Shown here: positions 18,001 to 24,000 of the stretch, one piece after another
Layout of the letters: every line of letters starts with the position of its first letter
How positions within the stretch are numbered: the first letter of the stretch is position 1
Source of the DNA: an uncultured bacterium
Lineage (GTDB): Bacteria; Babelota; Babeliae; Babelales; Babelaceae
Assembly (NCBI GenBank): GCA_963713855.1
Contig: OY970209.1
Location: forward strand, 1,024,001-1,088,000
Length of the DNA: 64,000 bases
Direction of reading: 5' to 3'
Position numbers: made by a program

Positions 18001-21000
18001 ATTACAGCGACGAAATGAAACATTTTACGACCTAAAGCGCAAAATGACTACTTTGGTGCTAGGATTATTGTATATTTTCCAAAGAGGTATCTTATATGGC
18101 TACGGCTGTAAGATTATCAGAAGAGATCATTTCTGAAGCAAAAGTTATGTCTAAAGTGCTTAATAGGTCGGTAGCAGGGCAAATCGAGTATTGGGCTAGA
18201 GTAGGAAAACTAGCCGAAGAAAACCCAGATTTAACATATGAATTTATTAAAGATATTCTTATAGCTCAGCAAGAAGAAGAGATGGGTAGGATTGAACCTT
18301 ACATATTTGGTTAGAGCTTGTAATGAACGTTATACAAACTTTATCCTTTGCTAAAAAAGTAAAGAAGCTAAATAACTTACTTACGATCCTGACCTTAAGA
18401 TACTTCATGGAGAATTAATAGGTATTAAGGACGTAATAACGTTTGAGGGAACAAGCGTAGAAGGTGTAGAGCTAGCTTTTCGTGATTCTGTTGATGACTA
18501 CCTTGAATGGTGTCAGAAGCTCGGTCAAAGACCTGAAAAAACATTTACAGGCAACTTACGCGTTAGAATAACTCCCGAACTTCACGCGCGTCTTTCACAA
18601 GAGGCCGCCGAAATTGGCATAGGCCTTAATTCGCTCATTTCTGAGAAATTGAAACATTAGCCCTTTTACTTTTGGTCTATTTATTTTTCTCCCAGCCTCT
18701 TCCCATATTGGTCAAAAGTGTTAGAAAAGTGCCTATACACACAAGAAATAACCCTATCATAAGCAAAAAAAGGCCTAGCCCAATAGGTGATGACCAGCTT
18801 AATGTTAAAACATCCATTATAAAAACTCCTCTTTAGCAGATAAAAGATGTCATTTGAAGGTTCAATTGTACGTTCATTACAATTCTACAGATCTGTGAAA
18901 ATTATATCTTTAAAGATATAAAAAATCTGCAAATTTATGCTTTACGTGAAATAAAACGTAGTTAGCATTTAGCACGGTTAACCTGCCACGTTGAGAAGAT
19001 ACAGTGAGTATTGTTATCTGTCCCAGGGTGTTCTTGCGCTAGGTATCTCAGATAAGGTACTGTGGAGTAAGGGGGAATAATGAGAGTAGGTATTATTGGT
19101 GGGGGTGCTTCTGGGCTTGTCACTGCCTGGTTGCTTGATCCAGTGTGTCAAGTCACGCTTTTTGAAAAGGAAACGTCATTAGGTGGTCACGTGCATACTG
19201 TGCACGTGCCATTTGGTGATGCGGTAGTTCCTGTTGAAGCAGGATTTGAATTTTTTTCGGATACGATGTTTCCCACCTTTAATCGACTGCTTTCAGTCCT
19301 TAAAGTGCCTATTAAAAGTTATCCGCTTAACTATTCATTTTTTGAGCCACATTCGAAAAAAAGCTTTGTTCTACCTCCCTTTGGTCAAGATGTTATAGAA
19401 TGGCATACCTTATTATCCTCACATCTGGTGGATCTTTTGCAGCTTAAGCATTTTGTCTCTAGAGCGGAGTCAATCATAGCGTCAAAAAATAGTAACATGA
19501 CCATTGAAGAGTTTATTGAAGGATTAGTGCTTACCAGTTCTTTTAAGCATTCTTTTTTGTATCCCTTTCTTGCAGCCTGCTGGGGTGCTCGTTTTGATGA
19601 TTTTAAAACCTTTTCTGCGTACGATATTCTTATGTGGTACGTCAAAAATCAGCCCTCGGGTTTGCAGCCGTTGGTTTGGAATGAAGTCGAAGGTGGAACG
19701 AGCGTTTATATTGAGGCTTTAAAAGATGATCTACGTTCAACTCAAGTGCGCTTAGGTGTTTCTAACCTACAAATTGAGCGTTCAAATAATATATACAGGG
19801 TTATTGAAAATGATGGCTCGGCATTCGAGTTTGATCATCTTGTTATCGCAACCAATGCACCGCAGGCAGCTTCTTTATTAGCATCTTTAGAGTGCATGGG
19901 GTATTTATGTGCCATACTTGAAAAAATTACCTATTTTCCCTCACTCATCGCAATTCACGCAGATCAACGGCTTATGCCTGACAACAAAAACCACTGGTCC
20001 GTCGTCAATGTGCGTTCAGAAGAAACTTTTAGTTCTCTTACCATTCATAAGCCTTGGTTAACGTCACATTTTCTTTTAAGAAGCTGGGTTACCTACGACG
20101 TACCATTAGATCTGCACCCGCTCTACGGGCTTTACTCCTTTGATCATTTACGCGTAACACCCGAGTATCTTCGTGCTCAAAAGGCTCTTGAATACGTACA
20201 AGGGCAACAGAATATTTGGTTAGCCGGCATGTATACCCATGAAATAGATTCCCATGAAAGTGCTATTTGCTCGGCTCTTCGCGTAGCAAGCGCTTTAGCA
20301 CCTTCTTCACCACGCTTACAAGCAGTAAAACTTTTTTCCTAAAGCTCTTTTTTTAATTCGTTTTACAGTATACTTGTTACTATTAGCTCATTAGGAAAAA
20401 TGAATGAAAAAGCACGTAACGCTGTTTTTAAGCTTAAGCTGTATGCTTGTAATTCGCACAGAGGAGCACAGTATGGCCACTGAGAAAGAGACTCCTCAAT
20501 GCATTATTCTTAAACTGGGAGGAAGCCTTATTACCCAAAAAGATACCGATAAGGCGGAAATTGCTACGTCATTGCTTAAGGAATTGGTTCAAGAAGTAGC
20601 TCAAGTGTGTGCGGTAAAGCCTATTGAACTCGTTATTGTACATGGAACGGGGTCATTTGGGCACGTACCTGCAAAAAAATATGTTCTACCTTTTTTAGAT
20701 AACCCAAAAGAGCTTTCAAAGGGCATAGCTTTAACAAAGCTGAGTCTGCAAGAGCTTAATTACGCTATTGTTAAGGAGCTTGTTGAAGCTAATATTAATG
20801 CAGTTGCTTTTTCTCCCTCTTCAGCAGTTACTACCAGTAATGGATGCATTCAAACTTTTAACTTGCGGGCTTTAAAGGAGCTGCTTAATAAGGGACTTGT
20901 ACCCGTATTGCATGGCGACTGCGTTGTGGACCTACAAAAAGGCTTTAGCATTTTAAGCAGCGACACCTTAGCAGTGTATCTAGCAGTACAACTTCAAGCT

Positions 21001-24000
21001 TCTCGAGTTCTTCTAGCTATGGACTATAACGGCGTTTTTGATCGCGATCCCGCCTCAAAAGAATCAAAAAAAATTGACGTTATGACAAGGGACCAACTTA
21101 TGCTTCTTGAGCATTCAAAAACGCGCGGTACCGACCTTACCGGAGGTATTAAGAAGAAAGTAGAGGAACTTTTCAAACTGTCTTATCACGGTATCGAAGC
21201 TGAAATCATCGGCGGCAAAAACAAAGGTTACCTCAAGAGGGCTCTACTGGGAGAGCGCGGTCTTGGTACACTCGTTCGGTAACAGTGTGATCTTAGTCAT
21301 GATAGTAAAATTCCTTGAGACTGGGCATGCTAAAGTGCCACAGAGTCCAGTGAAGTACGATGTTTATGGAGCCAGTATTTATACGCCACGAGTGAAAAAA
21401 CTGCTGCCGCTGCTCCCATAACACCGATAGCTACAGGCACACCGATACTAACACCGATAATTACGCCCAAGGGCTGACTACTTCCTCCGTCTCCAGCTGA
21501 GCTACCGCTATTTGTACTTGAGCCATCGCCAAAAAGAGAACCAATTGATACATCGTTTGAGTAAAAGTTTGCTGTTGCCAAGAACGTGTTGTTGATCGTA
21601 TCAAAAACAGGTGCAAAGTTAATACTTACGCAATGCATCGAATTATTAGGTAGGTGAAAGGAAGTGCCTTGACTTAAAATAGTGCCTTGAAGGGTAAAAA
21701 GCGTCAAAGTACTTGAATCGCTATTCGCAGTGGCCACAAATGCTTCACTTGGAGATATCGCGACTGACTGAGGGTTAAGGTCGGTTGCTGGTAAAGGATA
21801 AGATTGTCCTGTACTCAGCGAACCAGCTTGCAAAGTAAACACAGTTACATCATTAGATAGACCGTTAGCAGTAAAGATAATCGAGTTACTACCCGCCAAA
21901 CTTGAAAATGCTACAGCTTGGGGACCAGTTGATCCAGCTGGTAGAAGTTGGGAAGTTCCGCTATTAAGGGCGCCGGAAGTTACTTGAAAGAGAGTGATAT
22001 CATTTGAAGCATAATTAGCTGTAGCAAGATGTGAGCCATCAAATGCAAAGGCTACTGCTGCTGGCTCAGTAGATCCTGGAGGAAGAGGGTAATTAATACC
22101 TCCACTTAAGGCTCCTGCCGCAAATGTGAAAATACTTACATCATTAGAACCACGATTAGCAACGGCAAGATACAAGTCATCGGGTGAAAAATTTACTCCG
22201 GCAGGATGAATCGATCCTGAAGGTAAGAGAAAAGATTGGCCATTAGTAAGGGTTCCTCCCACAAGAGCAAAAAGCGTAATATCATTCGTGTTATCGTTGC
22301 ACGTTGCTACATACGAGCTGTTTGCAGAAAAGGCTATCGATGTTGGGTAAGACAGAGCTCCTAAATTATAGGGTAGGCGGTAGGATTTTTTTGCTCCCAA
22401 GGTGAGCGTATTATTTGCTGTAACTACCTGAAAAAGAGATACATCGCTCGAGGCATAATTTGCTGTTCCTAAATATGAACCATTAGGAGAAAAAGCCACA
22501 GAAGCTGGCTGCCTTGAGCTTACAGGAAGTGGAGGAAGAAGATACGATTTTCCTTGGCTTAAAACTCCGCCTGAGAACGTAAATACGGTAACATCTGAAG
22601 AAACGTTATTAGCAGTAGCGCAATAGGAGCCGTTAGGAGAAATTGCTACGGAGCTTGGTCCATTGGAGGTTGAAGGTATTGAGTATGAAGTGCCGGCATT
22701 CAAAGCTCCACCACTTCCCACTGTAAACACCGTAACATTAAATGATGAGTAGTTAGCGGTAAGAAGATAAGCACTATCAGCTGAAAATGTTGCTTCAAAG
22801 GGACCTAACGCACCAGAGGGCAATGAATAGTTCGTTCCGCTATTAAGAGCACCGCCTGATCCCACAGTAAATATAGTTATGTTGTTTGAATTATAATTGG
22901 CCGTTGCAAGGTAAGACCCATTTGGTGAAAATGCTATAGAATAAGGAACATCAGAACCGGGAAGCGCATACGATGTAGCACCACTAAGAACACCACCCGC
23001 TCCAACCTGAGATATCGTTACAGATCCAAAACCATCACCCGTTGCTAAATATAAACCGTTAGGTGAAAAGGCGACTGCCATTGCGCCGGTAGTACCCGAC
23101 GGAATCGCCGGAAGAGTGTAAGAGGTAGCTCCGCTTAAAGCACCCCCCGAACCAACTTGAAAAATTGTCACTCCCCCTTGGGTCGAGGTGTTAGCCGTGG
23201 CTAAATATAAGCCATTCGGCGAAAAGGCTACCGAGGATGGGCCCGATGAGCCCGCAGGAAGCGTGTATGAGGTAGCACCGCTTAAAATACCTCCAGCACC
23301 TACTTGAAAGATGAAGACCTCATTTGCAATATCACTTGTGGCTGCAAGATAAGCACTATTTGGTGAAAAGGCTAGCGATTGACTCGCCGTGGCATCGGAT
23401 AATATTTGGGTCGAAACTCCTCCACTTAAGGCTCCGCCTGTTGCCACGTTGAATAGCGTGACGTTGTTTGAGCCATTAGCCGTAGCAAGGTATGAGCCGC
23501 TTGGTGAATAAGAAATCGAAACGATATTCGTAGAACCTGAAGGAAGAGCATACAAAGTCGCGCCTGAAAGTGCTCCGCCAGCTCCAACAGTGAACACCGT
23601 TACAGCCTCTGATCCGCTATTAACATTAGAACAAGCAAATTGCGAACCATCTGGAGAAAACGTTCCAACCAATGCACCCGAAGATCCGCTTGGCAAAGCA
23701 TACGAGGTGCCTCCTGTAAGAGTACCACCCGCCCCCACATTAAATACTGTGATATTATTTGAAAGAAGATTAACGGTTGCAAGATAGTTGTTATTTGGCG
23801 AAAATGAAACGGTCTCTGGCCCCTGTGAACCTGCAGGTAAAGAATAAGAGGTCGCTCCAGAAAGCACTCCGCCAGCTCCTACAACAAATACCGTCACGTT
23901 GTTTGAGTTGGGATTTGCAACAGCAAGGTATAAACCATTTGGGGAAAATGTTATGTCGATGGGATATCCTGAACCTCCTGGTAGAGGATACGAGGTTGGC

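Follow-up and report, generated by a model that had tools for sequence, protein, structure and literature searches.

An archaeal-type isopentenyl phosphate kinase with a signal-peptide-like N-terminus in a member of the Babelaceae lacking detectable isoprenoid precursor pathways

The window, a stretch of 64,000 nucleotides within the 1.52-Mb single-contig genome of a member of the Babelaceae, harbours a gene for an isopentenyl phosphate kinase (IPK). The features of the locus are the following (positions count from the first letter of the window):

19080..20342, + strand: FAD amine-oxidase-family oxidoreductase, direct upstream neighbour (PF01593, PF13450)
20393..20396, + strand: AGGA, 7 nt 5' of the first ATG (20404), a candidate ribosome binding site by sequence
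20404..21282 including the stop codon, + strand: IPK gene in its long reading, 292 aa (open reading frame, NF040647 profile, matches to solved IPKs)
20404..20478, + strand: signal-peptide-like N-terminus, residues 1-25, with an MKKH n-region, a 13-residue hydrophobic stretch and S-M-A (23-25) as putative -3/-1 site (sequence reading and heuristic)
20462..20475, + strand: AGGAG, a 6-nt spacer and the second in-frame ATG, M24 (20473-20475), an alternative start that would give a leaderless protein of 269 aa
20503..21279, + strand: kinase core, residues 34-292, with K37-L-G-G-S, G-x-G-x-F-G-H87, G171-D172, D244-x-T-G-G and K252 (columns invariant in a 17-sequence alignment)

The IPK gene lies within a run of signal-bearing genes which includes an Ank protein and propeller proteins. 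The initial annotation gives an Ank region and a propeller gene as its flanks and thereby omits the direct upstream neighbour, the FAD amine-oxidase-family gene, which is encoded on the same strand and separated from the IPK gene by 61 nt. The nearest Atlas clusters of this neighbour are generic bacterial FAD oxidoreductases; no link to the IPK was found and the gene was left out of the proposed system.

Residues 34-291 of the window protein cover the complete NF040647 profile (IPPK_Arch equivalog, positions 1-259 of 259) with 222.4 bits at a cut-off of 120 (E 5.6e-66), and PF00696 (AA_kinase) is matched with 132 bits. Solved IPKs are recovered with E-values of 8e-41 (3ll9), 3e-39 (8u0k) and 6e-31 (3k4o), the identity to characterised or solved IPKs amounting to 36-45%. 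Two homologues without names share 72% and 57% identity with the window IPK, followed by an Altiarchaeota IPK with 54%. The NF040647 cut-off is also passed by the related proteins P0002 and P0003 and by both copies present in a second genome, designated G203 (215, 207, 194 and 172 bits, respectively). Invariant across the 17 aligned sequences are K37, G39, G40, H87, G171, D172, D244, T246, G247, G248 and K252. The N-terminal K-L-G-G-S loop, the H-G-D aspartate and D-x-T-G-G with the following lysine constitute what we take to be the catalytic motifs of IPK. In the alignment H87 pairs with residue 66 of the 3k4o chain; this residue is His60 in the numbering of the M. jannaschii enzyme, the signature catalytic histidine within G-x-G-x-F-G-H (PMC9654404, PMC3857490). 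Read via the M. jannaschii alignment, the alkyl-pocket positions R1 to R4 of the window IPK are occupied by I108, T111, C173 and I183. The corresponding M. jannaschii numbers are presumably F83, I86 and I156, in agreement with the letters in the 3k4o alignment. In T. acidophilum the pocket is formed by Y70, V73, V130 and I140, the usual hydrophobic or small residues being Y/F/A, I/V/T, I/V/T and I/V (PMC8500459); Ile at R1 and Cys at R3 of the window IPK are not among these listed residues but are of similar size. R1, R2 and R4 are the same as in the nearest archaeal IPKs of the 17-sequence alignment. The SGD motif reads SSD, a variant found in 10 of the 388 distinct members of the family; four of these fall outside the bacterial clades. 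With 37.6 bits for FomA (cut-off 550) and 38.9 bits for FosC (cut-off 350), the protein remains below the thresholds of both fosfomycin kinases. The whole-profile match and the preserved motifs substantiate the initial annotation as a full-length archaeal-type IPK and, judged by its sequence, the gene is a real, intact isopentenyl phosphate kinase with predicted activity.

Profile searches of the genome with PF00348, PF02401, PF00368, PF04551, PF02542, PF01154, TIGR02150 and UbiA gave no match, and sub-threshold scores only were obtained for PF00288 (12.6 bits), PF02670 (14.2), PF13292 (14.8) and PF01128 (20.7). As regards the mevalonate route, neither a GHMP kinase over threshold nor HMG-CoA reductase, HMG-CoA synthase, IDI-1 or IDI-2 was found; the setting in which IPK usually operates, a mevalonate pathway with MVK, decarboxylase and IDI, is thus missing from this genome. 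The claimed lack of a precursor pathway is thereby corroborated for every MEP or mevalonate route tested by profile search, including HMG-CoA synthase, whose absence had been judged from tables only. UppS (242 bits) and MiaA (169 bits), the users of IPP and DMAPP, are retained as annotated, MiaA being devoid of a leader. The genome also contains two MraY/WecA (Glycos_transf_4) genes; a synthase for the allylic primer that UppS needs was not found in it. Since there is no MEP or mevalonate route, IDI or trans-prenyl synthase, the kinase would be limited to ready-made C5 monophosphates.

Across the complete set of 261 species genomes available for the order, which is identical to that of the phylum, NF040647 is passed in two, the present genome and G203 with its two copies. 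In addition, eight unassigned metagenomic proteins group with the same two bacterial IPK clades (see below), so that the gene is not, as initially stated, confined to a single Babelales genome. Nor is the special status implied for this genome tenable: UppS is present in 246 of the 261 genomes, HMG-CoA reductase in 26 and a polyprenyl synthase in seven, and possession of UppS in the absence of a precursor pathway is the rule within the order. As more than 200 relatives share the same gap and possess no IPK, the kinase is accessory to precursor supply and not its solution. Its absence from 259 of the 261 genomes counts against the explanation we favour. In G203 a type 2 IDI gene (TIGR02151, 405 bits at a cut-off of 281) lies 0.9 kb downstream of the IPK gene, with one small ORF in between. 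This 3-kb ipk-orf-idi cassette is absent between collinear flanks in both congeners, and the linkage of ipk to idi lends independent support to an isoprenoid role.

The best 80 named loci related to the window IPK are archaeal without exception, in agreement with the initial annotation. In the tree the window protein, P0002 and P0003 form a group (SH-aLRT 100) inside an Altiarchaeota-dominated set (98). A second bacterial clade, comprising G203 and five metagenomic proteins (100), is placed beside Methanosarcinaceae. A constrained tree rules out one common origin of all ten bacterial IPKs, as it costs 121 lnL units (p-AU 7e-16). The bacterial IPKs hence fall into two clades, each nested within an archaeal group of its own: one is Altiarchaeota-like, the other Methanosarcinaceae-like. 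The assumption of a recent transfer could not be upheld: compared with like-sized ORFs, GC content (42.3%, 53rd percentile), GC3 (37.2%, 66th percentile) and codon-usage distance (69th percentile) are typical of the genome, the members of the window-gene clade are just 57-72% identical and its stem measures about 0.5 changes per site. The window IPK appears to be of Altiarchaeota-like descent and to have been in the genome for long enough to resemble native genes.

The kinase core is preceded by 33 residues which form the signal-peptide-like segment, lie N-terminal to the profile match (from residue 34) and had been missed in the initial annotation. Signal-like calls were made by a heuristic of our own, not a trained predictor, which yields false positives at Rossmann N-termini and mis-called ORFs; it flags 8 of 389 family proteins, and all eight are among the ten of the bacterial clades. 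P0003 is left unflagged solely through one Arg in the scoring window. Altogether, a Sec-signal-like N-terminus is seen in nine of the ten bacterial-clade IPKs (the window protein and P0003 in the first clade, 7/7 in the second clade) and in none of 378 other family members fetched. The hydrophobic stretches comprise 11-15 residues; they are rich in Lys on the N-terminal side and flanked by neutral or acidic sequence on the C-terminal side. The positively charged flank of a membrane segment stays on the inner side of the membrane (positive-inside rule), so that these flanks would place the kinase domain outside. In the G203 C96 copy AGGA is present 6 nt before the ATG, and the leader-bearing start is the sole in-frame ATG before the core. 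By the same heuristic 482 of 1204 ORFs (40%) of the present genome are signal-like, compared with a signal-peptide share of 44% given for a cultured relative in the accessible text of PMC6561590. They include cofactor-dependent enzymes, namely Fic, an AAA_33 P-loop kinase, a sulfotransferase, GT90, G6PD and a ManC-like protein. New here are the two origins of bacterial IPKs and the apparent confinement of signal-like N-termini to the bacterial clades. The signal-like N-terminus shared by the bacterial IPKs points to action outside the cytoplasm; a start at M24 would allow for cytoplasmic salvage.

That the gene encodes a functional IPK which serves salvage and stems from archaea, with its activity predicted, we consider very probable; for the whole statement, a salvage kinase for host IP/DMAP including export, we see the chances as evenly balanced. 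The long form would be made and leave the cytoplasm via Sec, and the kinase would convert IP or DMAP and ATP to IPP or DMAPP either in the periplasm or in the host. Host ATP would be available there, as must be the case in an ATP-importing parasite, and three tandem TLC-family ORFs in the genome fit host-ATP import. The product would add to host-derived precursors for MiaA and for UppS, whose undecaprenyl-PP serves MraY/WecA and the cell wall, IPP being taken up by the same putative route as in IPK-less relatives. We know of no importer for IP or IPP. The host IP/DMAP pool is assumed from plant and human Nudix enzyme work, as far as its accessible text goes (bioRxiv 10.1101/2023.11.29.569174). 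IPP/DMAPP have to reach the cytoplasm, if only for MiaA, and an exported kinase thus entails one more transport step. Export is also disfavoured by the G203 UppS, which has no N-terminal segment, and the G203 IDI, which has no leader, since an exported G203 kinase would be apart from these partners. More tentatively, and with somewhat less than even confidence, we propose that Dependentiae captured IPK from two archaeal lineages separately and that a Sec signal peptide was added on both occasions. After export the kinase would use host ATP on host IP/DMAP, either in the periplasm or where parasite and host meet; the parasite's own exported phosphatases may supply part of this substrate, and the diphosphates would feed the putative importer on which the whole phylum relies. 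If true, an IPK that is exported would be described for the first time, and a metabolic enzyme gained by transfer would have been re-targeted convergently in energy parasites.

Cytoplasmic salvage, the reading of the initial annotation, we regard as rather unlikely; here translation would start at M24 and the leaderless 269-aa kinase would trap imported IP/DMAP as IPP/DMAPP in the cytoplasm. AGGAG precedes 122 of 1204 called starts as opposed to 23 of 6272 internal ATGs, an about 27-fold enrichment, and this site is stronger than the AGGA of M1 (found with its 7-nt spacing at 184 of 1204 vs 109 of 6272), which counts against the long form. In the alignment, moreover, M24 falls opposite residue 1 of the nearest homologue, P0002 (72% identical), which as called has no leader; 269 aa is the usual length of an IPK, and MiaA as a user of the product is cytoplasmic. 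Against this stand the frame, which is open from M1 with its own AGGA, and the leaders of P0003 and the entire second clade, including that of the C96 copy with its sole in-frame ATG before the core. An uncleaved N-terminal anchor holding the kinase domain at the inner face beside UppS, where it would channel scarce precursors into undecaprenyl-PP, seems improbable to us. UppS does carry an N-terminal hydrophobic segment in the present and in 12 of 13 other fetched genomes of its family (f1), as opposed to one of seven UppS fetched from other families (four lack it, two f7 genes were not resolved), and the heuristic also flags cytoplasmic-face enzymes such as a PlsC-type acyltransferase and a GT28-type protein. 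Yet the short stretches and charge distribution of the IPK leaders argue for a domain outside, and in G203 the IPKs have leaders even though UppS is anchorless. Similarly poor prospects are assigned to a secreted effector which, delivered to the host cytosol, would shift host IP to IPP to manipulate the host and not to feed the bacterium. The signal-bearing surroundings of the gene would suit it, as would the host-directed types in the signal-like set (Fic, sulfotransferase, GT90 and many Ank proteins) and, as stated in the accessible part of PMC6561590, the signal peptides of 78% of the Ank proteins in a cultured relative; the single cassette with a leaderless IDI in G203 fits bacterial metabolism better. 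Another substrate, fosfomycin-like or a longer prenyl phosphate, or an inactive relic is highly improbable: IPKs are promiscuous towards alkyl phosphates (PMC8500459, accessible text), and Cys at R3, the small Thr at R2 and SSD deviate, but the FomA/FosC scores, the archaeal-like R1, R2 and R4, the occurrence of SSD elsewhere in the family and a frame intact with all catalytic motifs after long residence speak against it.

The favoured interpretation, an exported salvage kinase, may be compared with known systems. Archaeal IPKs (3LL9 from M. thermautotrophicus, 3K4O from M. jannaschii, 3LKK/3LL5 from T. acidophilum and 8U0K) share the His/Lys/Asp motifs and the full-length match with the window IPK, whose alkyl pocket looks similar. 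In the archaeal loci fetched, some 20 nt separate IPK from the start of IDI-2 (e.g. L022), whereas the window IPK has no adjacent IDI, resides in a bacterium without a mevalonate pathway and differs from its archaeal counterparts in the signal-like N-terminus. An active IPK of archaeal type occurs in bacteria of the Chloroflexi (Roseiflexus, Dellas et al. 2013, PMC3857490, accessible text), where it works with MPD in a complete pathway, in contrast to the present genome without GHMP kinase or decarboxylase, HMG-CoA synthase and HMG-CoA reductase; Chloroflexota-type sequences form a clade separate from the window IPK. As far as the accessible parts of Hoshino and Gaucher (2018, PMC6107057) go, CPR bacteria contain IPK irrespective of other mevalonate genes, typically syntenic with IDI and of "enigmatic" function, which the G203 cassette resembles. 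These parts make no mention of a signal peptide and describe CPR copies clustering apart from Archaea and read as ancient, unlike the bacterial IPKs analysed here, which are nested in modern archaeal groups; they also assign Dependentiae the mevalonate pathway only, of which we find HMG-CoA reductase in the minority of genomes given above. Rickettsia, obligately intracellular, likewise has neither upstream pathways nor FPP synthase, keeps UppS, is thought to take up host IPP, DMAPP and FPP and gained one isoprenoid enzyme by transfer; in the accessible text (Ahyong et al. 2019, PMC6854040), however, this is IDI and not IPK, with no archaeal donor and no export signal. Plant cytosolic IPK reclaims IP/DMAP from dephosphorylated IPP/DMAPP outside a full-pathway context (Dellas et al. 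2013, PMC3857490, accessible text). This plant cycle serves the host's own regulation; the parasite would tap that pool. Nudix hydrolases reportedly take part in the IP/IPP cycle of plants, as is said to have been described by Henry et al. in 2015 and 2018.

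The kinase gene under study occupies the following position.

20404..21282, + strand: isopentenyl phosphate kinase (IPK) gene, open frame of 292 codons

By every sequence test available, this gene is real, intact and encodes an IPK. Residues 34-291 of its product span the full 259-position profile of the NCBIfam equivalog NF040647 (E 5.6e-66, 222.4 bits, cut-off 120), and the Pfam match is AA_kinase. ArgB, ProB, FosC and FomA follow as the next families, all of them far under their cut-offs, for which reason an identity as fosfomycin kinase was discarded. Seven distinct chains of solved IPKs match the protein with E values from 8e-41 (3ll9) to 2e-19 (3lkk). 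In an alignment of 17 sequences, K37, G39, G40, H87, G171, D172, D244, T246, G247, G248 and K252 are invariant, with H87 aligning to His60 of the M. jannaschii enzyme, a histidine which passages in PMC9654404 and PMC3857490 describe as an IPK signature. Together, the whole-profile match, the matches to solved IPKs and the invariant motifs bear out the initial annotation, which had called a full-length IPK. The four alkyl-pocket positions (R1-R4), as defined in a section of PMC8500459, are occupied by I108, T111, C173 and I183. Since these residues are close to those of the archaeal neighbours, nothing indicates that the pocket has been remodelled for long chains, and we rejected an enlarged pocket accommodating long prenyl phosphates.

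The genome harbouring this gene (G000) consists of a single contig of 1,521,901 bases and is 91% complete by markers. It was inspected by six-frame family searches, whose controls were positive in between 5 and 14 of the 14 reference genomes, in keeping with the range of each family. No match was obtained in it for polyprenyl synthase, IspH, HMG-CoA reductase, IspG, IspF, HMG-CoA synthase, IDI-1 or UbiA, nor for the type 2 IDI protein of genome G203 (see below) used as a query. GHMP kinases (12.6 bits), Dxr (14.2), Dxs (14.8) and IspD (20.7) gave sub-threshold cross-hits only. UppS (242 bits), MiaA (169 bits) and two MraY/WecA-type genes are present. Hence, the earlier list of absent pathway enzymes and present users stands, including the absences of Dxr, IspF and HMG-CoA synthase, which had so far been taken from tables only.

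This situation is widespread in the phylum. Our sample comprised all 261 species genomes of the order, and a phylum-level search returned the same 261. UppS is found in 246 of them (186 of the 189 high-quality ones), as against 26 genomes with HMG-CoA reductase, limited to 5 of 21 families and including none of the 40 members of the window's family, and seven genomes with polyprenyl synthase. In this phylum, UppS is thus normally an orphan. The statement in a passage of PMC6107057 that Dependentiae “solely have the MVA pathway” is thereby qualified, as it is true of a minority of the present sample. IPK exceeds its cut-off in two of the 261 genomes, the second being G203, which belongs to a different family and is 69% complete, so that its earlier absence from all others of 100 sampled Babelales genomes does not extend to the order. 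The remaining 259 genomes lack it. As more than 200 relatives do without IPK, the enzyme is not what permits life without a precursor pathway; it is an extra.

The proteins closest to the window IPK are P0002 (72% identity) and P0003 (57%), both unnamed, followed by proteins at 49-55%, one of which is labelled Altiarchaeota. A single metagenome scan yielded none but remoter relatives. In the species-genome collection the best 80 loci are all archaeal, headed by Altiarchaeota at 53, 47 and 44%, which confirms that the nearest named relatives are archaeal. We calculated a tree of 88 rows by a quick IQ-TREE run with SH-aLRT as the only support measure. It contains the window protein, the two IPK copies of G203, 26 and 19 proteins from two homologue searches, and 40 of the 80 named loci, hand-picked to span the named phyla; the 40 omitted are mostly more Bathyarchaeota, Hadarchaeota and Methanoregula. 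A first clade (support 100), consisting of the window protein, P0002 and P0003, lies inside a 28-row Altiarchaeota-dominated set (98), within nested sets at 100 and 95. A second clade (100) unites both G203 copies with five metagenomic proteins. Its sister group (90) comprises Methanosarcinaceae and Methanohalophilus, the whole being part of a set of 24 rows (99) made up of Methanosarcinales, Halobacteria and two rows of Methanomicrobiales (Methanoregula and Methanocorpusculum). Forcing all ten IPKs of the two clades, here called the bacterial IPKs, together worsens the tree by 121 log-likelihood units (p-AU 7e-16), the constrained group having been chosen after the first tree was seen. We read this topology as two separate captures from different archaea. 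The motif SSD instead of SGD was rejected as a clade marker: of the 10 proteins showing it (11 rows), among 388 distinct members of the family (389 rows), four belong to neither bacterial clade.

The view that the transfer was recent could not be upheld. Among the open reading frames of its genome the window gene is typical in GC content (53rd percentile), GC3 (66th) and codon usage (69th), and identities within its clade go down to 57%. A synteny comparison with the congener G009 gave no collinear match for the IPK gene or the adjacent FAD oxidase gene, the matches being mostly repeats of propeller genes.

The two IPK copies of G203 share 45% identity, and their identity to the window protein is 29-31%. 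One adjoins groES/groEL, rpe and ATP-synthase genes. The other, on contig C96, has an unknown gene on one side and ftsW, ruvB and dnaE on the other, and is followed by a signal-bearing open reading frame of 146 amino acids and by a type 2 IDI gene (TIGR02151, 405 bits versus a cut-off of 281).

L015 2230-5254 (G203:C96): ipk-orf-idi cassette, 3 kb; flanking genes adjacent in G204 and G205

G204 and G205, congeners of G203, have collinear flanks (68-77% DNA identity) and lack the 3-kb stretch with ipk, the small reading frame and idi. This indicates that the G203 contig is genuine and the cassette a discrete gain or loss, an ipk-idi pair in the archaeal style having been cleanly inserted or deleted. 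In the archaeal loci fetched, IDI-2 directly follows IPK, e.g. in locus L022. Neither a GHMP kinase nor HMG-CoA reductase was found in G203. Like the window genome, G203 has a stand-alone module, predicted to lead from IP via IPP to DMAPP. Contamination or misassembly was dismissed, as the window gene lies within one 1.52-Mb contig and is native in composition, and the cassette on C96 is bounded on either side by sequence collinear with the congeners of G203.

A conspicuous feature of the bacterial IPKs is the segment preceding the kinase core. In the window protein, whose core starts at residue 34, it consists of MKKH, 13 hydrophobic residues and S-M-A at positions 23-25, and P0003 possesses a comparable leader. 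All seven members of the second clade show a Lys-rich start, 11-15 hydrophobic residues and then small residues, whereas the Methanosarcina IPKs beside them start only 5-9 residues ahead of the core. A crude home-made heuristic, which demands net positive charge followed by a charge-free 10-residue window with a mean hydropathy of at least 2.0, marks eight of 389 family members, all among the ten bacterial proteins; P0003 misses it through one Arg only, and P0002 as called has no leader. In the C96 copy of G203 the leader-bearing ATG, with AGGA 6 nt upstream, is the sole in-frame ATG before the core. Given the leaders in both clades and this sole start, the predicted leader characterises the bacterial IPKs, both clades having acquired it, and is no artefact of a single gene call.

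The same two observations speak against the rival of a leaderless cytoplasmic salvage enzyme of 269 residues initiated at a second in-frame ATG (M24, position 20473), which we consider possible but rather unlikely. In its favour, M24 is preceded by AGGAG at a distance of 6 nt and aligns to the first residue of P0002, the first ATG (M1, position 20404) having AGGA 7 nt upstream. Genome-wide, AGGAG precedes 10.1% of called starts versus 0.37% of internal ATGs, the corresponding values for AGGA being 15.3% and 1.7%. Both the long and the short form may be made. A promoter scan of positions 18900-21500 revealed no promoter-like site (4.5 expected from shuffles), and the two terminator-like sites of this stretch (19229-19244, + strand; 21142-21126, − strand) do not lie between the oxidase gene and the IPK gene.

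The leaders, to us, are most coherently explained by an extracytoplasmic kinase. It would phosphorylate IP and DMAP, the latter being named as a known IPK substrate in a passage of PMC9654404. As the window genome has no IDI, separate supplies are required of DMAPP for MiaA and of IPP for UppS. The enzyme's place of action would be the periplasm or the host side, where monophosphates would be converted to diphosphates, to be taken up by the importer postulated for the phylum. The monophosphates might be supplied by host Nudix activity or could arise from diphosphates via the parasite's own exported phosphatases. ATP would presumably be at hand, since an ATP importer must have host ATP outside the inner membrane. 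The genome contains the following TLC-family genes outside the window.

G000:C1:915342-919561: three tandem open reading frames of the ATP/ADP translocase type, matched in four stretches

Signal-like N-termini were assigned by the heuristic to 482 of 1204 open reading frames (40%), close to the 44% which a passage of PMC6561590 gives for Chromulinavorax using Phobius. From these, 249 of 150-650 amino acids without a second hydrophobic segment were selected, and 247 were scanned against Pfam, two straddling region borders. The subset comprises expected exported types (penicillin-binding proteins, solute-binding proteins, OmpA, OmpH, SurA, peptidases, phosphatases, a sulfatase) and many Ank and propeller proteins. 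It further contains cofactor-dependent enzymes whose domain starts at least 40 residues from the N-terminus: Fic, an AAA_33 P-loop kinase, a sulfotransferase, two GT90 proteins, enzymes of GT2 and GT4, SAM methyltransferases, GNATs, a thioredoxin reductase fusion, NUDIX, a ManC-like protein and G6PD. In such company, an ATP-dependent enzyme bearing a Sec leader is not out of place. False positives of the heuristic are Rossmann N-termini (domain from residue 3-11) and two mis-called fragments. Several members of this predicted secretome within the window, and three outside it, are listed below.

37-717, − strand: Fe/Mn superoxide dismutase, 24-residue signal-like N-terminus, domain from residue 25
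25909-27294, + strand: G6PD gene, 56 residues before G6PD_N, signal-like at the start, no other Met before the domain
36230-37372, + strand: ManC-type nucleotidyl transferase, signal-like
37889-38872, − strand: class B (HAD IIIB) acid phosphatase, signal-bearing
G000:C1:296270-297367: NUDIX protein, signal-like N-terminus
G000:C1:359124-359732: Fic protein, signal-like N-terminus
G000:C1:1093474-1094124: AAA_33 P-loop kinase, signal-like N-terminus

The NADP-dependent G6PD would accordingly be marked for export, and the last three represent further nucleotide-dependent enzymes of the predicted secretome. The ManC-type and phosphatase genes are situated 15-17 kb from the IPK gene.

The heuristic also flagged a PlsC-type acyltransferase, a GT28-type protein and UppS, so that some leaders may be anchors for cytoplasm-facing enzymes. 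On this ground the IPK leader might be a membrane tether beside the N-terminally anchored UppS of the window's family (f1), which we regard as improbable, since UppS of G203 has no N-terminal segment. That the kinase is an effector directed at the host appears equally doubtful. A membrane-anchored UppS is itself unusual.

G000:C1:781248-782045 (outside the window): UppS gene, N-terminal hydrophobic segment ahead of the catalytic domain

A segment of 13-22 residues is also present in 12 of 13 other f1 genomes (L186-L198), conserved in character and not in sequence. Outside f1 it is absent from G203, G107, G164 and G198 and present in G184; two f7 genomes are without a call.

Isoprenoid supply in obligate intracellular bacteria lacking both the MEP and the mevalonate pathway is an unsolved problem, and in this phylum the gap is the rule. 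Two independent captures of archaeal IPK, one of them accompanied by IDI in the 3-kb cassette, suggest that isoprenyl monophosphates are a currency whose salvage pays off, and the leaders, confined to the bacterial copies, provide a concrete, testable idea of where salvage happens. The enzyme kind is known. According to sections of PMC3857490, it occurs in Chloroflexi within a full alternative pathway, as well as in plants and scattered eukaryotes, and a passage of PMC6107057 reports IPK of CPR bacteria, often beside IDI without other pathway genes, in a role termed enigmatic. Rickettsia, a pathway-less parasite stealing precursors, gained IDI, in contrast to the window genome which gained IPK and has no IDI; a Rickettsia transporter for IPP, DMAPP or FPP is only postulated (both in parts of PMC6854040). 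Among open-access papers and bioRxiv we found no report of IPK in Dependentiae, of a double capture from different archaea or of an IPK with a signal peptide, and the relevant parts of PMC6107057, the only one of them to name both IPK and Dependentiae, report no IPK in the latter. Hence, the occurrence in Dependentiae, the double archaeal capture and the signal-like leaders appear to be new. They add a case of archaea-to-bacteria transfer followed by putative re-targeting, in which the convergent leaders carry most of the interest.

Finally, the surroundings of the window gene deserve mention. The upstream FAD oxidase was rejected as a partner of IPK because its FAD amine-oxidase family is a generic bacterial one and it lies beside neither G203 copy. 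Further features nearby are as follows.

18096-18314, + strand: ParD-like antitoxin gene (PF11903, 73 bits), no evident toxin partner
18315-19079: about 760 bases without an open reading frame above 54 amino acids, just upstream of the oxidase and IPK genes
21330-24770, − strand: 1146-residue lactonase-type beta-propeller repeat protein with a C-terminal hydrophobic segment

The ParD-like gene and the ORF-poor stretch may be remains of a mobile or toxin-antitoxin element. The propeller protein has more than ten signal-bearing paralogues in the genome, and its repeat-level DNA matches are scattered over the congener.
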